Source of the DNA: a virus
Length of the DNA stretch: 64,000 nucleotides
IMG/VR virus record: IMGVR_UViG_3300020183_000009
Strand: one strand, 5' to 3'
Shown here: positions 16,628-60,559 of the stretch, one piece after another
How positions within the stretch are numbered: the stretch's first letter is position 1
Layout: the number at the start of each line of letters is the position of its first letter
The notes under the pieces: model-generated
The model's input: the letters and a program-made list of their open reading frames with translations, nothing else
Database searches by the model: none
What the model was told of the DNA's origin: nothing
Made by a program: the position numbers and the translations under genes

Positions 16628-16864
16628 TTATTCAGTTTTATTAATAAAAGATTGTCTTTTATATATTACTAAATTTTCAAGTGGTAAAATAACGTCATAA
16701 TGATAATCTCTCCAATATTTGTCAGGAGTCCTTTTCATTAATTGATTTTTAAAATTTCTAACCAATTGGTTGGTGGCATGTGTCTGTTGGTATGTCTCAC
16801 AAGAGTCAATTACTTTTTCTATCCATTTTGATACGTCTCCGTAGTGCATACTTTTTTTTTCCAT
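16628..16864 (-). CDS. small protein, terminal member of cassette array
   Basis: ATG lies within junction repeat; ends INKTE-stop, a degenerate version of FKSE-stop. Confidence 0.75.
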   Translation of the reverse strand: MEKKSMHYGDVSKWIEKVIDSCETYQQTHATNQLVRNFKNQLMKRTPDKYWRDYHYDVILPLENLVIYKRQSFINKTE

Positions 16865-16865
16865 C

Positions 16866-17054
16866 TTATTCTGATTTAAAGGTTAACTCATCTAATTTTA
16901 TCTGGTACTCTTTACCGTCTTTGAAGCCTTTTAGGTATTCCTCTGCCTTTTGAACTCTCTCTTTTGCTTTGGCTTGTTCAAATTTTACTACAAAATCATT
17001 TGGTATAATGTGTTTTATTTCATCATATAACCATTCTACTGCTGTCTGTTTCAT
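16866..17054 (-). CDS. cassette protein, TAVEWL family (62 aa)
   Basis: True start MKQTAVEWL in junction repeat; ends LTFKSE. Confidence 0.85.
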   Translation of the reverse strand: MKQTAVEWLYDEIKHIIPNDFVVKFEQAKAKERVQKAEEYLKGFKDGKEYQIKLDELTFKSE

Positions 17055-17055
17055 C

Positions 17056-17280
17056 TTATTCTGATTTAAATGTTTCTTTGTAGTATTGTTCTGCTCTTTC
17101 ATAATCATAAGCACAAATGTCAAATCCATAATTATTTGCAAACTCTATTATCTGCTCCTTTTCCATTTGCTTGGCTTGGTCAAATCTTTCAATAAAATCT
17201 GTATGAAGACCTCCAAAATCTTTACACATTTCTTTAAATTCATTTTCTAACCATTCTACGGCACTAATTTGTTTTTCCAT
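17056..17280 (-). CDS. cassette protein, SAVEWL family
   Basis: MEKQISAVEWL...QAKQMEKEQII...ETFKSE. Confidence 0.85.
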   Translation of the reverse strand: MEKQISAVEWLENEFKEMCKDFGGLHTDFIERFDQAKQMEKEQIIEFANNYGFDICAYDYERAEQYYKETFKSE

Positions 17281-17281
17281 C

Positions 17282-17458
17282 TTATTCTGATTTAAAGGTT
17301 AATAATTTTCTTTTTGCTATTTCAATTTGTTTTTTAAAATAATAAGGTTTTAATTTATTTGATTTTCTATTGCATATTTCAATCATTTCTTTACAGTAGT
17401 CAATATGTTTTCCAAGTTTATTTTTACTTCGGTCTATAATTCTAAATGGGTTATTCAT
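17282..17458 (-). CDS. cassette protein, basic (58 aa; absent from ORF track)
   Basis: Manual translation MNNPFRIIDRSKNKLGKHIDYCKEMIEIC...KRKLLTFKSE exactly fills the interval between two repeats. Confidence 0.8.
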   Translation of the reverse strand: MNNPFRIIDRSKNKLGKHIDYCKEMIEICNRKSNKLKPYYFKKQIEIAKRKLLTFKSE

Positions 17459-17459
17459 C

Positions 17460-17678
17460 TTATTCTGATTTAATTGATTCTATTGGCTCTGCACCTTTTT
17501 GATACATAGGGGATGATACAATAACGTGTATTTGTTCTTTACCTAAATCACCTTTACAATGTGGGCAACACTTGTTTTCAATCATTTCAATAATGGCTTG
17601 TTCATTATATGCTTTGCCAATGATTTTTGCCAATCTTTTTTCCCATAATAAAAATTGACCTAATTCTGCTTTTTTCAT
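17460..17678 (-). CDS. cassette protein with CPHC motif
   Basis: Unrelated body, ends SIKSE. Confidence 0.8.
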   Translation of the reverse strand: MKKAELGQFLLWEKRLAKIIGKAYNEQAIIEMIENKCCPHCKGDLGKEQIHVIVSSPMYQKGAEPIESIKSE

Positions 17679-17981
17679 TTATTCTGATTTAAAGGTTAAA
17701 TTCATTTGTATTCTGTTTAATATTTTATTCAATTCTTCTTTGTCTTTATTGGTAATTGGAATATCTGTACTCATAATTTGTTTACTTGAACCAAAGGTTA
17801 ATTCATCTAATTTTATCTGATATTCTTTACCATCTTTGAATCCTTTTAGGTATTCCTCTGCCTTTTGAACTCTCTCTTTTGCTTTGGCTTGTTCAAATAC
17901 TTCAATATTGATATAGCGGGTGGATTTTGAAATATTTAGGTTAGCAAATAACCATTCTACGGCACTAATTTGTTTTTCCAT
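17679..17981 (-). CDS. chimeric cassette protein
   Basis: First 33 nt identical to 17248-17280; 17793-17898 matches 16878-16983; ends LTFKSE. Confidence 0.85.
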   Translation of the reverse strand: MEKQISAVEWLFANLNISKSTRYINIEVFEQAKAKERVQKAEEYLKGFKDGKEYQIKLDELTFGSSKQIMSTDIPITNKDKEELNKILNRIQMNLTFKSE

Positions 17982-17982
17982 A

Positions 17983-18414
17983 TTAATATTCTTTTTTAAG
18001 TTCTCTATATATATCTCTTTCTTTAATTGTTTCTCTTTTATCGTATAGTTTTTTACCTCTACCTAACACTATTTCAACTTTAACCAAACCTTTATCATTC
18101 ATAAAAACTTTATATGGTAAAATAGTAAAACCTTTCACCAAATTATTACTCAATCGATTTAATTCTTTCTTTTTTAACAAAAGTTTTCTATCTCTTTTTG
18201 CATTGTGAGTAAAAGCATCTTTAGTTTCAGATATGAGGATATTTTTAACAAATAATTCCCCATTATTAAAATAACAGAATGAGTCGTTCATGGATATCTT
18301 ACCGTTTCTAATGGACTTTATCTCGGTCCCTTGTAGAACGATACCAGCAGTATAAGTTTCTAATATGTGATATTCAAATCTTACTTTCCTATTTTCAATA
18401 TAAACTTTACCCAT
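17983..18414 (-). CDS. smpB: SsrA-binding protein
   Basis: ENRK.RFEY.I..T..AGIVL.GTEIKSIR, R.RKLLL.K.E, GKKLYDKRE; start moved to MGKVY behind TATATTTG promoter. Confidence 0.95.
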   Translation of the reverse strand: MGKVYIENRKVRFEYHILETYTAGIVLQGTEIKSIRNGKISMNDSFCYFNNGELFVKNILISETKDAFTHNAKRDRKLLLKKKELNRLSNNLVKGFTILPYKVFMNDKGLVKVEIVLGRGKKLYDKRETIKERDIYRELKKEY

Positions 18415-18437
18415 AGGAGCAAATATACGAAATAAAA

Positions 18438-18475
18438 ACAAAAAACCCTAACAAATGGCTAAATTTGTTAGGGTT
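18438..18475 (-). terminator. intrinsic terminator
   Basis: Perfect 13-bp stem AACCCTAACAAAT/ATTTGTTAGGGTT with T tail on minus strand. Confidence 0.85.
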
Positions 18476-18995: not shown

Positions 18996-19337
18996 ATGAG
19001 ATTAAAGATAAAAAATAATACATTTAAAATCAAAACAGTCTTTTCACAAAAAGACACTCAAAAAGGGATGATGGGTCGTAAATTTAATTCAACATTTAAT
19101 GGTATGTTGTTCTTAATGAATGAAGGTCAACATTGTTTTTGGATGAAGAACTGTATTATACCTTTAGATATCATTTTTATTAATGGTAATAAAATAACCG
19201 AAATACATCATAATTGTCCTCCATGTAAAACTGAAGAATGTGATAATTTTTGTGGTGAGGGTGATACGATATTGGAGGTTAAGGGAGGTACTTGTAAAAG
19301 TCTATATATCAATATTGGTGATACTATCCATTTTTAA
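18996..19337 (+). CDS. DUF192 family protein
   Basis: GMM.R...GMLF...FWMKN..IPLDIIFI...PC...LEV.GG. Confidence 0.85.
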   Translation: MRLKIKNNTFKIKTVFSQKDTQKGMMGRKFNSTFNGMLFLMNEGQHCFWMKNCIIPLDIIFINGNKITEIHHNCPPCKTEECDNFCGEGDTILEVKGGTCKSLYINIGDTIHF

Positions 19338-20730
19338 TTTTATCCTCCAAAACTCTAACAAATTCACTCTGAACCATTTTGGTAAATTTTACATATGGAG
19401 CGTCGTCAGAATCAGGGTTATATTTGTATTTGTTGGCAGGTGGTCTTTTACTTCTACCCATATAATTTAAACCTGAAATATTCGTAATACACTTGTGTCC
19501 TCCACTATTGGCCTGAATAACATCCCAAGCGGTTACAGTAATATTATCCAACATCTCTTTTTCTTCTTCACTTAAAGATGTAAATGGTTGGTTCATCATT
19601 TCTCCAATATCCTTTAATTTTTGTTTACCATTTTCCATGGTTTTAAAATCATTTCCGTAGATAGCAACAAAATCTTTAAAAGTAAAACCAACGGAATGTC
19701 CACCAAATTCTTTAGAAAATTCAGAAACCCATTTTATAGTTGATAATGGTATATCTCTTCTTTTAAGTTGTGACTCCCATTTAGATAAAACTTCTTGACC
19801 CATCTCACCTAAATTAACACCTTTCAATTCTCTATCTTCCTTAAATGGGTTGCAAGACGCTTGTACTAAACCTAAAGGCCAAGCGATAACTAAAAAATCA
19901 GCTTCAGGATTATTTTTAAATGGTGTGTACCTATCATAAGAACCTGGTACCATTGTACTACCACCACCGTATTGTACGATAACATTACCCATAACTTTAA
20001 CATTAGGGTGTGATTTCATCTGTTGGATATATCCTTCTTTGTTTTTTTGTAACTGTTCTTGCCCTACGTAACCCTTTTCAACCATAATTCTTTTTATGTT
20101 TTGAAGTAGGTTCATGATTGATGGTGTTGTGGTCATTACAAGTTCTTCAAGGAAACCTGGTTTGTTTTTAAACGCCAATAATAATTTATTTGCAACTAAC
20201 CCTAAAGCCATTTTATTTTTTTGTAATCCTTTTTCTTTATCTAATCTGAAAAGATAATTGATAACCTCGTCAACACTTATTTTATTAGCCGCATAATTTG
20301 CCGAATCCACAGTAGATATTAACAATAAGTCGTCACTTGAGAAGATTTCTTTTGGTGAAACTACTTGTGAAATGGTTTCAACATTTGACCTTGATTGTCT
20401 AAAAGATGTTGACTTGGTGTCTTCAGCACCTGCTTGTCTATCATGGTGGTCTGTATGTATAACAAACATTGGTTTACCATGGGCGAAATCCACTAAAACA
20501 GGCATCACATCACCAGTCGCATCATTTTTTTTTACGGCAAATTCTTTATCCCCATATTGGATTACGTGAGTATCAATAACATTAATACCATTACTTTCTA
20601 AGTAATGTTTCATAGCGATTGCCGTGGCAACTCCATCTAAATCTTGGTGAAAGTATATTTCGGCTTTAGGGTATCTTCTAGCTAATTTTCTAATGTCCCT
20701 TAAACCACTCTCTTTGATAAGTCTTTTCAC
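19324..20730 (-). CDS. DHH-family phosphoesterase-like protein
   Basis: HQDLDG, LVDF, TDHH and C-terminal GGH motifs; LIKE leader. Confidence 0.7.
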   Translation of the reverse strand: MKRLIKESGLRDIRKLARRYPKAEIYFHQDLDGVATAIAMKHYLESNGINVIDTHVIQYGDKEFAVKKNDATGDVMPVLVDFAHGKPMFVIHTDHHDRQAGAEDTKSTSFRQSRSNVETISQVVSPKEIFSSDDLLLISTVDSANYAANKISVDEVINYLFRLDKEKGLQKNKMALGLVANKLLLAFKNKPGFLEELVMTTTPSIMNLLQNIKRIMVEKGYVGQEQLQKNKEGYIQQMKSHPNVKVMGNVIVQYGGGSTMVPGSYDRYTPFKNNPEADFLVIAWPLGLVQASCNPFKEDRELKGVNLGEMGQEVLSKWESQLKRRDIPLSTIKWVSEFSKEFGGHSVGFTFKDFVAIYGNDFKTMENGKQKLKDIGEMMNQPFTSLSEEEKEMLDNITVTAWDVIQANSGGHKCITNISGLNYMGRSKRPPANKYKYNPDSDDAPYVKFTKMVQSEFVRVLEDKIKNG

Positions 20731-20737
20731 TATATAG

Positions 20738-21907
20738 TTAAATAAATAATTTTGTTAATATAGACACGGGGTCAATACCTCCTCCGCTTGATGATTGTGT
20801 TGGTGGTGACATGATAGTTGATGGTGGAGGAGCCACATTACCTCCCATATCATCAGCCCAAAGTCTTTGGGCTTGGGGTAATTGAGCGTATTCTGAATAT
20901 AATTTATTTGCTTCGTCAGCACCTCCCACGGCATTTTCAATTTCTTCAGGCCCTACAAAATTACCAACCCCTAACCAATCTAAAAAACCAGCATAAAACT
21001 TAGTTCTTCTCATAAGTGACCTGGTAGCGGGATTTCCTCCGAAAATTCTTGGTACTCCCGCTTGTAATTTAGACCATAAACTAGCATCAGATTTCATAAA
21101 CGATAACCAACTATTTTTACCCGTACCATAATCTCTGAATATTCTAACAGGGTTTTGTTTTGTTAAAACACCTAACTGTGCCTTTTCAGCTGCTGCCAAT
21201 GTTTTAGCCCCTGAAACTCCTTTTCCTATCTTACTAGCATCTTTAAATCCTTTACCAAGTTTTATCGCGTCCTTGCTAAATTCGACCGCACTTTTAACTT
21301 TTTGCTTGTTTTTCATTAACTTACCAGCGTCGTCAAAAACTTTAACGTAATCTGTGACTCCTTTCATCATTGAGCCCGACGCTTTCCCACTTGTACCAAG
21401 TTTACTTAATAAAGTAGTACCCCATTTAGGTGTTGAGGATACTAATTTTGATATTGGTCCTCCCGCAGCTTTTGCAGTTTCTGCAACTTTAGCCGCGTCT
21501 CCAACTGCTGACGCAGTTCTAAATGCTTTAACCGCATCACCCCCAAGTTTTAAAGAACCAACAACTGGTTTAGCTATTAAATCACCTAACACAGGTAAAA
21601 CCGATATCCAAGATAATATTGCGAATAATTTATCCCCTTGTCTCCAATAACTTATACCGTTTACAAGGTCCACTATACCTGTAGGGTCGAAAATACCGAC
21701 AATATCACCTACAGTGTTATACCATCTTGATTCTTTCAAAAGATATGATTTTTCAGGAAAAAGAGACTTTAAAGTTTCAATAACAAAAGTTCTATCTTTA
21801 CCTGATAATTTTTCCCATTTTTCATTAATATAGTTAAGTTGTTCCTCTTTATAAATTTGGACTAACTTCTCTCTAAATTCAGATTCATTTATATAAGCAT
21901 TATTCAT
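20738..21907 (-). CDS. putative virion/ejection protein with pre-toxin-TG-like helical motif
   Basis: INE/LKE leader; DIVGIFDPTGIVDLVNG..Y...GD...A.LS..SVLPVLGD; Ala/Gly/Lys-rich; TATTTAT upstream. Confidence 0.6.
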   Translation of the reverse strand: MNNAYINESEFREKLVQIYKEEQLNYINEKWEKLSGKDRTFVIETLKSLFPEKSYLLKESRWYNTVGDIVGIFDPTGIVDLVNGISYWRQGDKLFAILSWISVLPVLGDLIAKPVVGSLKLGGDAVKAFRTASAVGDAAKVAETAKAAGGPISKLVSSTPKWGTTLLSKLGTSGKASGSMMKGVTDYVKVFDDAGKLMKNKQKVKSAVEFSKDAIKLGKGFKDASKIGKGVSGAKTLAAAEKAQLGVLTKQNPVRIFRDYGTGKNSWLSFMKSDASLWSKLQAGVPRIFGGNPATRSLMRRTKFYAGFLDWLGVGNFVGPEEIENAVGGADEANKLYSEYAQLPQAQRLWADDMGGNVAPPPSTIMSPPTQSSSGGGIDPVSILTKLFI

Positions 21908-21954
21908 TAGAAAATGTTTTTAATATAAATACCTACATAAATCAAAAATCCCAC

Positions 21955-22806
21955 TTATAATTGTGGGATTTCTTTTATTTGTTCTAACGTCTTAAATAAA
22001 TTAACTCTTGATTCAGCTACTTTACAATAGTCGGGTGACAATTCAATACCTAACCATCTTCTATCAAGTATTTGAGCAGCTACTAAACTAGTTCCACTAC
22101 CAACAAACGGGTCCAAAACTATATCGTTCTTGTAGGACAATATTTTAATCGCTTTGGTTGGTATGTCCATGGAGAAAGTAGCCTTGGTGAGTGACCTAGT
22201 GTCAGCAAAATAATTCCACTGACCATACACAAGTTGAATAAATTCTTTTTTATCTGTTTCTTCATATATAACTTTCTTTTTTGTAGTTCCGTCAGGTTGT
22301 TCAACATCGGTTATTTGACCTTTCCATTGTGGTTCACCTTTAACTTTTTTAATGTGGTATTTTTTATAAGCTAAAATAACACATTCTTTTGGGTTATAAA
22401 TATAAGGACTTGATGGTGACATCCATGAACCCCATGCAGTGGTTTTACTTCTATGTGGGGACTCTTCTTCAAGGTCAACAATACCGAAGAAACCATATCC
22501 AATCTCTTTCATAATTTGCCACATCTCAGATACGAAAAATATTCTCCCACCTTTCTTTTGTCTGTTAATTTCGTAGGGAATGTTTAACGCAATTCTTCCA
22601 TCGTCTTTTAATACCCGATATACCTGAGATAACCAATCACGACTAAAGATTTTATAATCTTCAAATTCAACATCATCATTATGAACATCATAATCAATAC
22701 CAACACCATAAGGACAACTAGTAACAACAAGGTCGACTGATGATTCTGGTAATGTTTTCATAACCTCAACACAGTCACCATTTATTATTTTTTCAGTTTC
22801 TATCAT
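21955..22806 (-). CDS. DNA N4/N6 methyltransferase, beta class
   Basis: GDC.EVM, VDLVVTSCPY (motif IV variant), LDPFVGSGT, GIEL. Confidence 0.9.
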   Translation of the reverse strand: MIETEKIINGDCVEVMKTLPESSVDLVVTSCPYGVGIDYDVHNDDVEFEDYKIFSRDWLSQVYRVLKDDGRIALNIPYEINRQKKGGRIFFVSEMWQIMKEIGYGFFGIVDLEEESPHRSKTTAWGSWMSPSSPYIYNPKECVILAYKKYHIKKVKGEPQWKGQITDVEQPDGTTKKKVIYEETDKKEFIQLVYGQWNYFADTRSLTKATFSMDIPTKAIKILSYKNDIVLDPFVGSGTSLVAAQILDRRWLGIELSPDYCKVAESRVNLFKTLEQIKEIPQL

Positions 22807-22902
22807 ATTCTTAATTAAATCCCCGTCCGCAATGAACCATTGCATTAATTTTTTCTTTTCTTATATAAGAAAAATAATCATTAATTTTTTTTAATATTTT
22901 TT

Positions 22903-23553
22903 TCATTTATCTAAAGTTATACTGTTATTAAAAATTTTAGTATTATTAAAAACAATATCAGGGGTTACTTTTATCATTAAAGCGGTATTTGTCTTAGATT
23001 TTATACAATTTTTGTTTTCAAAATTATTAATAGTTGTATTAAATCTTGTTATAGAAGTATAACTACCTGTTTTTAATTTATCAATGTCTAACCCTATAAA
23101 ATCAGTTGTTATAACATCATAAAAATTAGGCAAATCCCTTACTAAAGTTTTATCTTTAAATGATATCCAATCGTGATTATATTGTTTGAACTCATACAAT
23201 TTATTAATTGATGTTTTCAATCCTTTTTCTAAATCCTCAACATTTTTAAAATCTATCAGTATTTTGAATATATAATTCTCATAATCTTCCGTTATTACCA
23301 CATTGGTTATTCCTTCTTGTTGTATTAACGACTTTTTAAAATTTAAGATTTTTTCTTGTATGTCTGTTTTACTTAAAACTTTTTTACCATTTAAACTATC
23401 TAAAGCTAATATCGAACTTACTTTAGTCTTACTTGAGCTTAGATTTAATGTATATTTAAAAGTCCCAGACCCATCTAAATTTATTTTTAAATCATCAATT
23501 AATTCAACACAAGAAGTTAAAAATAAGATTAATAAAAAATAAATAATTTTCAT
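22903..23553 (-). CDS. putative lipoprotein
   Basis: Signal peptide with LTSC lipobox, IN.DGSG motif. Confidence 0.7.
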   Translation of the reverse strand: MKIIYFLLILFLTSCVELIDDLKINLDGSGTFKYTLNLSSSKTKVSSILALDSLNGKKVLSKTDIQEKILNFKKSLIQQEGITNVVITEDYENYIFKILIDFKNVEDLEKGLKTSINKLYEFKQYNHDWISFKDKTLVRDLPNFYDVITTDFIGLDIDKLKTGSYTSITRFNTTINNFENKNCIKSKTNTALMIKVTPDIVFNNTKIFNNSITLDK

Positions 23554-23768
23554 TTATTTTCCAATGTTTCAATATGATGATTTAAATACCAAAGAGCTTT
23601 TTTAAGGTCCTGAAGTTCTTTATCAGAATCTTTTTTCCCCGCTCTTGAGATATACTTTACGGTATTTCCCAAACTGAACCCCAAGTCCCAAGCATCAATC
23701 ACTTTAATGGCTTCATATGGGTTTGATTCTCCTCCATAATGTTCTGGATGATTTACTTGTTCACTCAT
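23550..23768 (-). CDS. DUF3310 (SaV-like) protein
   Basis: VNHPEHY, GNTVKYISRAGKK, DLKKALWYL. Confidence 0.9.
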   Translation of the reverse strand: MSEQVNHPEHYGGESNPYEAIKVIDAWDLGFSLGNTVKYISRAGKKDSDKELQDLKKALWYLNHHIETLENK

Positions 23769-23769
23769 T

Positions 23770-24885
23770 TTAATCTTCTTTATATTCGTTCAATAATTCC
23801 TCACTTGTAAGAATACCATTATATTTCTTTGCAACCTCATCAAAATTTTTAACACTTACATTACTAAACATATTTTGAACTGTTTCATCAAGTTCATTTG
23901 CCATATCAATGGTGTCAGAAATAACTTTTATAATTTCGTAAGGATTTGCATTTGATGCAGGTCTTCTATCTTCAATATAACCTTTCCATTCTTTAGCGGT
24001 TGATAATGGTACTCGTATTGAGGCTCCTCTATCACTTACACCCCAACTAAATTTATTAATTGATTGTGTTTCATATTTACCTGTTAACCTTAAATCATTA
24101 TCGGAACCATAAACTTCAATGTGAGTATCTCTTCGTGATTCTAAAGCATTAAATAAAGAATTGAAATACTTTTCCCCACCCTCATTTCTCATTTTGTGTG
24201 TTGAAAAATTAGTGTGGAGCCCTGACCCGTTCCATTCTCCGATTCTCAATGGTTTAGGGTGATATTCAATCCAATAACCGTATTTTTCTGAAAGTTTTTC
24301 CATTAAATATCTTGACATCCATAGGTCGTCCCCAGCTTTTAATTTACCTTGTGAGAATACTTGGTATTCCCATTGACCTAAAGCAACTTCAGCATTTACA
24401 CCTGTTATATTTATACCCATACTTAAACATAAATCCATATGTTCTTCAACAATATTTCTACCTATTACATTATGTCCAACACCACAATAATATTTACCTT
24501 GTGGTTCAATAAAACCTTTAGTATGTCCTAATATTTGTCCTCCCAATTCTCGTATAAAGTACTCTTGTTCAAACCCAAACCACATGTCTCTATCTTCCTC
24601 ACCCAATTTAGCTCTTTGATTTGTTTCATGCGGTGTTCCGTCAGAATTCATTACTTCACATAATACATAAACCCTATCAACACAACCTACTTCACGATAC
24701 ATTCTCACAGGTTTTAGAATACAATCTGATTTATCACCTTCAGCCTGTAAGGTAGAAGAACCATCAAAATTCCATTCAGGGATTGATGTGAAATCTGTAA
24801 CGTCAATATTACTTACTTTAATTTTACTTCTCAAATTTGGTTCTGGTGTATAACCATCAAGCCAAATATACTCTATTTTTGTCAT
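23770..24885 (-). CDS. glnA: glutamine synthetase type II
   Basis: EYIWLDG, WNFDGSST.QA, GFEQEY, NAEV..GQWEYQ, WNGSG.HTNFS, RLTG..ET, RGASIR, EDRRPASN. Confidence 0.95.
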   Translation of the reverse strand: MTKIEYIWLDGYTPEPNLRSKIKVSNIDVTDFTSIPEWNFDGSSTLQAEGDKSDCILKPVRMYREVGCVDRVYVLCEVMNSDGTPHETNQRAKLGEEDRDMWFGFEQEYFIRELGGQILGHTKGFIEPQGKYYCGVGHNVIGRNIVEEHMDLCLSMGINITGVNAEVALGQWEYQVFSQGKLKAGDDLWMSRYLMEKLSEKYGYWIEYHPKPLRIGEWNGSGLHTNFSTHKMRNEGGEKYFNSLFNALESRRDTHIEVYGSDNDLRLTGKYETQSINKFSWGVSDRGASIRVPLSTAKEWKGYIEDRRPASNANPYEIIKVISDTIDMANELDETVQNMFSNVSVKNFDEVAKKYNGILTSEELLNEYKED

Positions 24886-34410: not shown

Positions 34411-34563
34411 ATGTCTATGGAAAACGAAGTCGGTTGTAAAAAATGTAAGAAAAAAGGTTTGAGTGGAACTCATTGGATAATGGTAGTTTTATCATTTTAT
34501 ATCCTATTCACATCAATTTACGGTACCATTCAATTATTTAAATTATTATTTGCTAATATTTAA
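34411..34563 (+). CDS. small membrane protein with CxxC (50 aa; not in track)
   Basis: Manual translation [16 protein letters not shown] followed by hydrophobic helix. Confidence 0.55.
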
Positions 34564-35481
34564 TTCTCTTTTATATTTAACAAATAATTTAATGAAAAGG
34601 TCACCATTACCATTTTGACCTCTAAATCCTTTGGATTTAACTCTCAAGGGTTTAGACGTGTCGAAATCTTCGGGTAACTTAATAAACAAATCACCTGAAG
34701 GGTGAGGTAAATTAAACCCAATTTCATTTAAATCATTTAAAGTTAAGAACGCATTATAAATTAAATCGTTTCCAACTTTTTCGAAATTTTCTTCAGGAAT
34801 AACTTTAACTCGTATAACTAAATTACCATACATTCCATGGTGATAATCTCCCTTACCTTGCATTTTAAAAAATTGTCCATCATCAACACCATGTGGTAAT
34901 TTTATTTTCAAACTTTCAAAATCTGATTTAGTCCCTTCTCCATGACAAGTTCCACATTTGGTTTTAAACACTTCTCCCATACCTCTACATGTGTTGCAAG
35001 GTTGTCTAAATTGTTGTGTAAATAAACCTGTACCCATCGTAACAACCGTAAACCCAATACCATTACAAGTACCACAAGTAATCTTATCACCACCAGACCC
35101 ATTACAACTATCACAAGCGTGTTTCCTTTGGTAGTTAATTACTTTATCTGATGAATTAAATGATTCTAAAGTCCCTATTTCAATATCGATAATTTTATCA
35201 GGAACGGTTCTTTTTCTATTAGTGTAAAACGTACCGAATAAATCATCAAAAGATGAACCTCCCATCCCACCAAAAGGATTACGTCTACTGTTATCATACT
35301 GAGTCCTTTTATTTTGGTCTCCCAAAGTATCATAAGCTTCAGATATTTTTTTAAAAGTTTCTTCCGACCCTCCTTTATCTGGATGATGTTCAACCGCTAA
35401 TTTACGATATGCCTTTTTTATTTCATCTTGTGTCGCATTTTCATTAACTCCAAGTGTCTGATAGAAATTATCCTGATTCAT
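34546..35481 (-). CDS. dnaJ: DnaJ chaperone
   Basis: J domain with HPD, four CxxCxGxG repeats, C-terminal domain. Confidence 0.95.
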
Positions 35482-50266: not shown

Positions 50267-51148
50267 TTACATACAAGTTAGATATCGTTCACCTCTGTCA
50301 CAAAGAATTGTAATTACATTATCTCTACCAGTTTCTTGACAATACTTTAAAGAACCTGATACATTTGCCCCTGCACTAATCCCGACAAAAATCCCAAACT
50401 CTTTGGCTAATCGTAAAGCCATATTAGTAGCTTCTTGAGTTGACACCGTAATAATCTTGTCAACAAAATTTAAATCAACCATAAACTTTGACCCGTCTCC
50501 GATACCTTGAATTCCGTGTAACCTTGGTTCTCCACCGCTCATTACAGGTGATTCTGCTGGCTCCACCGCAACTATTTGTAAGTCAAAAAATTGTTCTGAC
50601 AACATTCTACCAGCACCCATAAGAGTTCCACCTGTACCAGTACCAGCAATGAATGCTGATGGGTTAATACCATTACACCTACATTGATACATCAATTCAA
50701 CACCCGTCCCCATGTAGTGAGATTCCAAATTTTTAGGGTTATCGAATTGGTTTCCATTAAACCATCCATTCTTGATTGCTAACTCATCTCTTAATTTTAT
50801 CGCTCCATCAAAGTCGCCAGGTCCAACTTCAATAAGTTCTGCTCCGTAAAACTTTAAAATCTTTTTACGTTCATCACTCATGTTAGATGGCATCACAATT
50901 ACACATTTAAGACCCATCTGAACACATAACATAGCAAATGAAATACCTGCGTTACCACTAGTTGCCTCAACAACAGTATCGCCCTTATTTAATAAACCAT
51001 CATCAAAACCACTTTTAAGTATGTTGTAAATTGGTCTATCTTTAACAGAACCTGATGGGTTCATAAACTCAGCCTTACCCCATATGGTAAACCCGTCTAT
51101 GTTTAATGGTAACAGTGATGTTTGTCCAATGGTTAACTCAGTTCTCAT
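50267..51148 (-). CDS. cysK: cysteine synthase (PLP-dependent, CysK/CysM family)
   Basis: KAEFMNPSGSVKDR, EATSGNAG, NQF.N, GTGTGGT, HGIQGIG, GIS.GA, CDRGERY. Confidence 0.92.
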   Translation of the reverse strand: MRTELTIGQTSLLPLNIDGFTIWGKAEFMNPSGSVKDRPIYNILKSGFDDGLLNKGDTVVEATSGNAGISFAMLCVQMGLKCVIVMPSNMSDERKKILKFYGAELIEVGPGDFDGAIKLRDELAIKNGWFNGNQFDNPKNLESHYMGTGVELMYQCRCNGINPSAFIAGTGTGGTLMGAGRMLSEQFFDLQIVAVEPAESPVMSGGEPRLHGIQGIGDGSKFMVDLNFVDKIITVSTQEATNMALRLAKEFGIFVGISAGANVSGSLKYCQETGRDNVITILCDRGERYLTCM

Positions 51149-59128: not shown

Positions 59129-60559
59129 ATGACTTATCCTTTTTTAGGACCAACTCCTACACCTAAACCAATAATACCTGAGTTCACAAATGAATGTGAA
59201 CCAATCACTTTATTCCCTATGGGTGTTGAGTGTAATCTTACTCATCCTTCTCCATCATCATCCGATGGTTCGATTTATTTAACAATAACGGGAGGAACTC
59301 CTCCATATTATATAAGCTGGAATAACGGTAACATTTCACCCGTTATATACAATTTAACTGCAGGTGTTTATGAAGCAACAGTTATTGATTCTTATGGCGA
59401 TTTTACCGCAAATACAAAATGTATTTTAACAGGTTCAACACCAACACCTTCCCCCACACCGACCCCAACACCTACAACTCCTTATATTGAGTATCAACTT
59501 TGTATGACAACAAATATACTTAAACAAGGTTCTTATGTAGAAACTCAAACTAATTTTTCACCTAACGGTTTATTTAATTCTAAACCTTCTTGGATTTCTA
59601 ATGACTCAACACAAGTAATATATTGGGACTCAACTCTTTTACAATGGAAGTTATCGGCTTCAACTCCAACAACTTATACAATATTTAATTCAAATCCTAC
59701 TTACCCACCAATTTATGGTAGTTGGTTTATTATTGGCGCTACAGGTACTGTAATAGTTTATGAAGGTAACTGTAATCAAATAGTAAGGATTCCAAATGGT
59801 AGATTCTCGGCAGAATCAGAAGATTCGGTCCAACCTATGAATGTTTTAATTACTAAAAACCAAACAATATGTGGATGTGATGGTGGTTTAACAATTAAAT
59901 CAAGTGGTGGTTACCCTCCATATTCATATTCGATTAATGGTGGTTTGACATATAGAAATATACCAATGTTCAGTAATTTATGTTCAGGTTCCTACAATGT
60001 TGTTGTTAGTGATTCTGAAGGATTTACTGTTAGTAATAATATAACGTTAAATCCTCCATCACCTCCAACCACTTATAACGTTAAATTAGTTACCCTACCT
60101 AAAACACTACAAGCAAATAGTACATTATTAACTAAAGAGTACACGACAACATTATCAATAACACCTGATTTACCTGATGGTACAAGTATTAACTTTAAAT
60201 TGAGTCATTTAAACTTATCTAAATCTTCACCTAATGAAGATTCCGCCACTTTTAATACCAAGACCTCATTAACTATTGATGGTATCAATATAATTCCACC
60301 GTCCTCATCTTCAACAAACGATGATAGTATTATTAATACAGTTGCAGGTTGTCAATCGGAAAATGTTTGGTTAACTTCATTAAATGAAGTGTGGGATTCA
60401 ATTACTATAGATAACACAAGTGATTTTAAAATTAGAACAATAACAAGTGTAAATAGAAATGAATTTGTTAATTGTTATGTTGGTACAAGTGATGAAACAT
60501 ATAATTTATCAAACTTAAAAATTTACGGTTGTGGTTGTTGTTCAATTATAACGTCATAA
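59129..60559 (+). CDS. SprB-repeat and PT-repeat structural protein
   Basis: DGSI.LT.TGGTPPY..SW.NG...NLTAG.Y...V.D and a second SGGYPPYSYSINGG...NLCSGSY.V.VSD repeat. Confidence 0.75.
   Translation: MTYPFLGPTPTPKPIIPEFTNECEPITLFPMGVECNLTHPSPSSSDGSIYLTITGGTPPYYISWNNGNISPVIYNLTAGVYEATVIDSYGDFTANTKCILTGSTPTPSPTPTPTPTTPYIEYQLCMTTNILKQGSYVETQTNFSPNGLFNSKPSWISNDSTQVIYWDSTLLQWKLSASTPTTYTIFNSNPTYPPIYGSWFIIGATGTVIVYEGNCNQIVRIPNGRFSAESEDSVQPMNVLITKNQTICGCDGGLTIKSSGGYPPYSYSINGGLTYRNIPMFSNLCSGSYNVVVSDSEGFTVSNNITLNPPSPPTTYNVKLVTLPKTLQANSTLLTKEYTTTLSITPDLPDGTSINFKLSHLNLSKSSPNEDSATFNTKTSLTIDGINIIPPSSSSTNDDSIINTVAGCQSENVWLTSLNEVWDSITIDNTSDFKIRTITSVNRNEFVNCYVGTSDETYNLSNLKIYGCGCCSIITS

Follow-up and report, generated by a model that had tools for sequence, protein, structure and literature searches.

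A stop/start junction repeated between small gene cassettes behind smpB in a virus contig, and its apparent part in cassette exchange

Phage genes are mostly small and of unknown function, with a mosaic distribution, and it has long been asked how they pass so cleanly from one genome to another. Since most mosaic joints lack any recognisable sequence, the usual explanation is illegitimate recombination. The closest described systems are the promoter early stem-loop (PeSL) elements of T4-type phages, conserved motifs lying between small genes, through which homologous recombination reshuffles gene modules (Arbiol et al. 2010, PMC2839356; Comeau et al. 2014, PMC4122927), and the "boundary" or "linker" sequences of lambdoid phages (Susskind & Botstein 1978; Clark et al. 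2001, both cited through PMC3029335). On the side of gene expression, initiation in Flavobacterium johnsoniae is favoured by A at positions -3, -6, -12 and -13, with no use of Shine-Dalgarno pairing (PMC6847099). Here we describe a junction in a 64,000-nt stretch of viral DNA (IMG/VR record IMGVR_UViG_3300020183_000009, the whole of which is called the window below) that ends one small gene and directly precedes the start codon of the next, and that is repeated through an array of such genes downstream of smpB. One exact sequence recurs here at hundreds of joints, natural variants directly reveal crossovers inside it, and its bases also fit the start rules of hosts that lack Shine-Dalgarno recognition.

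Downstream of smpB on the minus strand lie six small open reading frames (ORFs), ORF1 to ORF6, of 100, 72, 58, 74, 62 and 78 amino acids (Table 1). A pattern search finds five exact copies of TTAAATCAGAATAA on that strand, at 16866-16879, 17056-17069, 17282-17295, 17460-17473 and 17679-17692; the count of matches at two or fewer mismatches was equalled in none of 100 shuffles. Each copy provides the K-S-E codons and the TAA of one ORF, with the next ATG 0-1 nt away, a single G intervening at four junctions and nothing at junction 1 (TAAATG). The extended form TTAACCTTTAAATCAGAATAA, present in three of the five copies, places one TAA in each of the three reading frames. The initial annotation, made from the sequence alone, had described just such a five-copy stop/start array joining proteins with unrelated bodies, the last of them with a degenerate end, and the sequence, the ORFs and the pattern search bear this out: the 3' end of ORF6 is a degenerate copy, ATAAAACTGAATAA (16628-16641). 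Its spacings between copy starts of 190, 226 and 178 nt also stand, and only the fourth needs correcting, from 220 to 219 nt; junction 1 lacks the G. No family was found in Pfam or PHROGs for any of the six small ORFs, and a blastn search of the locus against cultured phages gave no match.

SmpB itself is conserved, at 88-92% identity, in six close relatives (L208-L213), and in all of these smpB and its TAA are followed by a single T and then the ATG of ORF6, with no cassettes between. Aligned to them, the window has a 1,117-nt insertion that consists of the five cassettes and is bounded by the direct repeat ATGGAAAAA. The comparison of cassette content and order at smpB that the initial annotation had called for thus reveals a difference in content. 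As a side observation, smpB is widespread in phages, with relatives encoded in more than 100 viral contigs.

Further comparison was made with an 18-mer, including the ATG, as search probe, and the viral counts given below are of the matches listed in IMG/VR. Proteins identical to those of ORF2 and ORF4 are encoded, in several arrangements, by contigs of a series of related samples; one arrangement is the window's own order, and the identical ORF4 protein is found in at least five distinct contexts. Contig L290 has the order ORF5-like, ORF3, ORF4, without ORF2, and its junction has the left side of window junction 5 and the right side of window junction 2; these two parents have only the 18-mer in common, and the L290 joint is a homologous crossover inside the motif. 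The 117-kb contig L377 is 100% identical to the window through smpB, ORF1 to ORF3 and junction 3, with unrelated genes beyond. Two contigs from two samples, L378 and L292, depart from the window at junction 5, past which they have other motif-carrying cassettes, and the 99.9% identity of L385 to the window starts inside junction 4. In L293 the order is rotated and ORF4 occurs twice; a circular form was considered for this contig and rejected, the arrangement being a linear array with ORF4 duplicated. Across the related contigs, breaks thus fall at window junctions 2, 3, 4 and 5.

The same pattern is seen when motif copies are compared in pairs across contigs: among the matches listed, 17 pairs are homologous on both sides of the motif, 87 upstream only and 77 downstream only, with flank identity in homologous pairs of up to 94-100%, and in 60 of the 77 downstream-only pairs homology begins 1-2 nt past the TAA. 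The motif is thus the limit of homology in most of the one-sided pairs. Chimeric assembly is an unlikely cause of these arrangements, because the repeats are much shorter than the final k-mers of the assemblers and several of the arrangements recur across independent samples. Comparison of the contigs thus shows the junction to mark recombination breakpoints. It supports the proposal in the initial annotation that promoterless mini-genes are gained, lost and reordered at the junction, the relatives lacking the five cassettes and the breaks falling at junctions 2 to 5.

A search for the motif in related phage contigs, another of the checks suggested at the outset, showed that at least 120 IMG/VR viral contigs contain the 18-mer with its ATG, often in 2-4 copies per contig spaced 110-600 nt apart. 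Copies in whole phage records lie close together and point the same way, as in a 223-kb record with 4 + 4 copies and an 80-kb record with 8 copies inside 11 kb; a terminase was found in one of five carrier records checked. By comparison, 596 Gb of prokaryote genomes hold only 87 stretches with the 18-mer, almost all of them single, and the multi-copy cases are tiny contigs binned into metagenome-assembled genomes, one of them Flavobacteriales. The 18-mer also occurs once each in about 25 Lachnospiraceae and about 8 Prochlorococcus genomes, where a chance or gene-internal match, retained within each group and unconnected with the phage element, is the probable cause. No copy of the motif is present in the 125-kb contig of a close relative, and no genuine copy in 80 smpB-phage loci (0.83 Mb) collected independently of the motif. 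The five-cassette block is foreign to this phage lineage and belongs to a cassette pool common to many phages. No report of the junction sequence, or of such a motif in Flavobacterium phages, was found in the literature.

Three of the small ORFs, ORF1, ORF4 and ORF5, are paralogues belonging to what is here called the AVEWL family, whose members are about 60-100 amino acids long, with three helices, and are marked by an N-terminal (T/S)AVEWL, a central EQAKxMEKEQ and a C-terminal EQYYxETF; all three fall within the family on these marks, ORF1 and ORF5 without the EQYY patch. ORF2, ORF3 and ORF6 are unrelated to these and to one another, so that the array is not a set of full-length paralogues, the outcome that the initial annotation had named as telling against its own proposal. 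A structure model of an AVEWL protein is a three-helix unit (predicted local distance difference test score, pLDDT, 81) with no match in the PDB; in a protein atlas the family appears in viral hypothetical clusters only, and one AVEWL protein run against cultured phages by tblastn had no match. AVEWL is an uncharacterised, phage-only family of small proteins.

The alignment shows the family to be mosaic within the gene as well: the three conserved patches set apart two variable halves, which are combined differently from protein to protein. An AVEWL gene called H is intact in contigs L117, L293 and L119, and ORF1 and ORF5 are two derivatives of it: ORF5 is H shortened at an internal TTAACCTTT and joined there to the junction, and in ORF1 a different AVEWL head is attached, at the conserved patch in the centre, to what is left of H, its middle and tail. 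In their native form the proteins of this family have ...EQYY(N/K)ETF near the C-terminus, with tails that vary beyond it; in 48 of the 84 homologues the tail is KSE. The junction may have arisen from the 3' end of an AVEWL-family gene.

Wherever it came from, the junction is now a nucleotide element tied to the next start codon and not a peptide tag. Among the matches listed there are 160 distinct contexts, and in 159 of them an ATG lies 0-2 nt downstream of the motif, opening ORFs with a median of 65 codons. The upstream ORF uses the KSE frame in 96 contexts and stops at the core's internal TAA in 24 and at the TAA of TTAACC in 19, and 21 contexts have no upstream ORF; some copies sit behind terminator-like hairpins or earlier stop codons, and one tRNA gene (Rfam tRNA, 34.4 bits) has motif copies on both sides. 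The 66 non-exact copies are invariant from -14 to -11, show one change each at -6 and -3, and are most variable at -1, -2, -17, -7 and -9. Since -9 and -7 are the second codon position of Ser and the first of Glu, and -14 to -11 do not vary, this is not a third-codon-position pattern. Of 19 changes at -2, 17 replace A by G and so preserve a stop codon.

The synonymous-site comparison proposed in the initial annotation gave a similar result. Of 54 AVEWL C-termini collected with a protein pattern ending just before K-S-E, 24 continue with AAATCAGAA and a stop without a single synonymous variant, and in the codons preceding K-S-E the third positions vary by 6-41%. The copy at the end of ORF6, which has no ATG behind it, has drifted in the window and in its relatives, as a constraint linked to the start codon predicts. 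The other idea raised in that annotation, that F/I-K-S-E is a C-terminal tag bound by a common partner, draws on the fact that five unrelated or paralogous window proteins end in KSE. It must be given up, and we attach almost no probability to it, because about 40% of the copies elsewhere among the matches listed lie outside the KSE frame or have no ORF upstream; in addition, third codon positions are frozen while first and second ones vary, and AVEWL relatives carry many other C-terminal tails.

The cassette holding the tRNA gene has a clean acceptor stem and T arm and an insert of about 70 nt, a possible intron or long variable region, and in the junction upstream of it the ATG is followed by just two codons (ATG AAA TAG). 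At loci where the motif follows a tRNA-like 3' end ARAGORN reported no tRNA, whereas the tRNA model of Rfam matched.

With regard to translation, A at -3, -6, -12 and -13, the bases favoured in F. johnsoniae, are the most constant bases of the junction. The window has a G+C content of 30%, and no Shine-Dalgarno signal was found in it (3 of 63 gene starts). The RNAs of the five junctions are near-unstructured, with folds of -0.5 to -3.6 kcal/mol and z-scores of -0.24 to +0.99; there is no local inverted repeat or palindrome at the junction, and no Rfam family matches the region. Pairing of the junction with 16S rRNA in the style of termination-reinitiation was tried and rejected, at -12.1 kcal/mol against a shuffle mean of -12.2 for Flavobacterium. 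The junction would, on its base composition and placement, act as a stop/restart translation signal.

A Flavobacterium-like (Bacteroidota) host is supported because the window encodes a SprB-repeat protein and because the cultured Flavobacterium phage elemoA (MT497017) has an AVEWL-family gene (hhalign 98%, E 6e-14) and looser versions of the motif, ...AATAAGATATG, at the junctions of its small genes. The exact motif is absent from elemoA, in which matches are at control level. The small early genes of elemoA (L294:2960-3460) also have A-rich TAAGATATG or TAAGATG joints, which resemble the 3' half of the motif.

The array is a candidate for co-transcription from the smpB promoter, the putative site being TATATTTG, which ends 6 nt before the smpB ATG. 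It matches TAnnTTTG, the -7 promoter consensus of Bacteroidota. The window has 98 occurrences of that pattern against 110 expected, and so shows no enrichment, and no further match occurs on either strand from 16628 to 18419; by pattern matching alone, promoter-consensus matches are thus lacking inside the array, with candidate sites on its flanks. Sigma-70-like promoter pairs are about as frequent in the region as chance predicts (15 against 13.8). If TATATTTG is used, the smpB mRNA would be leaderless or almost so.

Table 1. Position of the smpB array, its junctions and other features in the window, and of the tRNA-like cassette in two other contigs
Feature	Position	Strand	Remarks
Terminator-like hairpin	18444..18475	-	Upstream of smpB
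Candidate promoter for the whole array, TATATTTG	18420..18427	-	Match to TAnnTTTG; pattern match only
smpB, 143 aa from ATG at 18414	17983..18414	-	Pfam SmpB, E 4.7e-49; backbone gene upstream of array
Left direct repeat ATGGAAAAA	17973..17981	-	ORF1 start, left insertion edge; aligned to smpB/ORF6 junction of relatives
Cassette ORF1, 100 aa	17679..17981	-	Chimeric AVEWL-family gene
Junction 1, TTAACCTTTAAATCAGAATAA-ATG	17676..17699	-	TAA in three frames
Cassette ORF2, 72 aa	17460..17678	-	CCPHC motif, without known family
Junction 2, TTAAATCAGAATAAG-ATG	17456..17473	-	One parent of the L290 recombinant junction
Cassette ORF3, 58 aa	17282..17458	-	Basic, without known family
Junction 3, TTAACCTTTAAATCAGAATAAG-ATG	17278..17302	-	End of 100% identity in L377
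Cassette ORF4, 74 aa	17056..17280	-	AVEWL family
Junction 4, TTAAATCAGAATAAG-ATG	17052..17069	-	99.9% identity of L385 starts inside
Cassette ORF5, 62 aa	16866..17054	-	AVEWL family
Junction 5, TTAACCTTTAAATCAGAATAAG-ATG	16862..16886	-	Now serving native ORF6; L290 parent; breakpoint in L378, L292
Right direct repeat ATGGAAAAA	16856..16864	-	ORF6 start, right insertion edge
ORF6, 78 aa	16628..16864	-	Native here in all close relatives
106-nt direct repeat	16878..16983	-	95% identical to 17793-17898; common middle of ORF5 and ORF1
tRNA-like cassette, 145 nt	L002:6661-6805	-	Between two junction copies
tRNA-like cassette, 145 nt	L051:116-260	+	Between two junction copies
Unusual auxiliary gene set	19324-24885, 34546-35481, 50267-51148, 59129-60556		In the window

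We regard it as probable, with considerable room for doubt, that the junction is both a portable stop/restart start region and a homology patch for the integrase-free shuffling of cassettes. The sequence of about 20-25 nt, (T)TAACCTTTAAATCAGAATAA(G)ATG, would travel as a portable junction with small accessory-gene cassettes in phages of Flavobacterium-like hosts. At the RNA level it would close two reading frames, or three in the TTAACC form, and set the next AUG within 0-2 nt, in an unstructured, A-rich context free of a Shine-Dalgarno sequence and with A at -3, -6 and -11 to -13; as such a context is the one preferred by Bacteroidota ribosomes, any operon cargo placed behind the junction should be translated. 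At the DNA level, a near-identical patch between otherwise unrelated genes would give general recombination a place for in-register crossover, and we infer that the exchange is carried out by ordinary recombination enzymes of host or phage, without an integrase. Both within one phage and between co-infecting ones, cassettes could in this way be gained, lost, duplicated or swapped. The five cassettes of the window would have entered between smpB and ORF6 as one 1,117-nt block by way of the short homology ATGGAAAAA, and the block is presumably still being reshuffled in its source population.

Several observations weigh against this reading. An A-rich start region alone needs no C at -9, no G at -7 and no T at -14, and the exact junction sequence is not used by the hosts, so that something beyond ribosome preference must hold the sequence constant; this could be a factor that binds it specifically or repeated recombinational copying. 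On its left the insertion is bounded by a 9-nt homology and not by a junction copy, and L385 and L291 have neighbours without the full motif, so that some exchanges evidently do without it. Selection, too, enriches breakpoints at gene boundaries, since recombinants broken elsewhere do not survive. A bolder form of the proposal, which we consider possible but doubtful, is that the junction is the core of an integrase-free cassette system that has itself been selected: junction-by-junction recombination would free cassettes, including tRNA genes, as small circles or fragments that re-insert at any junction or junction-like stop/start in a co-infecting phage, with the three-frame stop and the Bacteroidota start guaranteeing expression of the cargo.

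The plainest alternative is that the motif has no function, being the inherited 3' end of an AVEWL gene (...EQYYNETFKSE-stop) with an ordinary start context, spread by recent recombination, and that the breakpoints at junctions reflect the survivorship of intact genes. The native tail of the AVEWL proteins, the KSE ends of 48 of their 84 homologues, the KSE-frame reading in 96 of the 160 contexts listed and the use of other short homologies in some exchanges would all be accounted for in this way. Such an origin does not explain the copies found behind tRNAs, hairpins and earlier stop codons, nor why variation should ignore codon positions while the invariant bases fit start-region determinants, why the 24 KSE ends, which are independent, should be free of synonymous changes, or why the one copy lacking a following ATG should have decayed; the L290 joint, with its crossover within the 18-mer, also speaks against it, and we think this explanation unlikely, if deserving of attention. 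An operator or processing site, bound or cut at each cassette start by a protein or RNase as with T4 RegA or RegB, or else a phage promoter for near-leaderless transcripts, would account for a conservation that goes far past A-richness (T at -14, C at -9 and G at -7 are mostly retained), for the constant position of the motif next to an ATG and for the fact that host genomes do not use the exact sequence. Close relatives, however, have no copies at all, so that a phage-encoded partner would have to arrive with the cassettes, and no gene is consistently linked to the motif; the junction contains neither TAnnTTTG nor a sigma-70-like pair, its complementarity to 16S rRNA is ordinary, as noted above, and it belongs to no Rfam family. 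This too we judge improbable.

Still less can be said for a dedicated site of site-specific recombination, in which the array would be an integron-like platform with its recombinase encoded elsewhere in the genome. The promoterless, co-oriented cassettes with one repeat apiece, the insertion bounded by a 9-nt direct repeat and the rotated cassette order in L293 would suit it. Against this, the junction has no palindrome or hairpin; the left insertion edge lies at ATGGAAAAA and not at the motif; and crossovers fall anywhere in shared sequence, including the 106-nt repeat inside genes and the internal TTAACCTTT. A scan of 37 window ORFs against Pfam or PHROGs turned up no IntI-type tyrosine recombinase, nor was there any integrase among the ORFs tested, the genome being incomplete. 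We consider such a site very unlikely. The initial annotation had itself likened the array to PeSL shuffling without an attC-like site or an integrase, and the missing palindrome and the ORF scan are in accord with that.

Elsewhere the window carries auxiliary genes for a NUDIX hydrolase, a DUF192 protein, a DHH-like protein, a glutamine-synthetase-like protein, a full DnaJ, a pyridoxal-phosphate-dependent enzyme and two DNA methyltransferases, as well as the SprB-repeat protein; Pfam and PHROGs give no match for most of its large ORFs. By CheckV, the 125-kb contig of the close relative is 43% complete, which suggests a jumbo phage.

With a junction of this kind it becomes testable whether one sequence can be start signal and recombination linker at once, and what form a strong, portable translation start takes in Bacteroidota. 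The element is also a possible marker for accessory-gene islands in uncultured phages and a candidate part for gene expression in Flavobacterium.

Among the known systems, integron cassettes, which are promoterless and expressed from an upstream promoter, resemble this locus in forming arrays of small, co-oriented cassettes with one repeat each; the cassettes here are apparently promoterless and may likewise be read from a promoter upstream. The junction, however, does not form the folded, attC-like palindrome, which was looked for in it, and its exchange points extend beyond the repeat; it is not integron-like in mechanism. Bacteroidota start regions in general (Baez et al. 2019, PMC6847099) have the same A at -3, -6, -12 and -13, the same lack of a Shine-Dalgarno sequence and the same low structure, but the host signal is a loose base preference, while the junction is a fixed sequence that carries stop codons and whose exact form is not found upstream of host genes.

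The likeness to PeSLs goes further. In both cases a short motif is repeated between small, non-essential genes of variable regions, with the upstream stop and downstream start included and no integrase needed, and recombination between copies of a PeSL leads to the insertion, deletion or replacement of whole genes among close relatives. When the junction is held against the features of PeSLs, insertions, deletions and replacements do end at its copies, and an early promoter and a stable stem-loop are lacking. A PeSL is a transcription unit, with a sigma-70-like -35/-10 promoter, a stem-loop terminator and a Shine-Dalgarno sequence, whereas the junction, of about 22 nt, has no promoter, hairpin or Shine-Dalgarno sequence and would act, if at all, on translation. 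It also occurs with the same exact sequence in many apparently unrelated phage contigs, not just in close relatives. For PeSLs, mini-circles have been physically shown. The junction works like a PeSL, then, but is not one. The lambdoid boundary sequences, as described in the source cited above, are likewise short and conserved, lie at gene boundaries and were proposed to serve module swaps by homologous recombination; as characterised there, they are rare, loosely defined and absent from most mosaic joints. The junction, in contrast, is one precise sequence with hundreds of occurrences and internal crossovers that can be read directly, and thus realises the old idea of boundary sequences in a far more explicit form.

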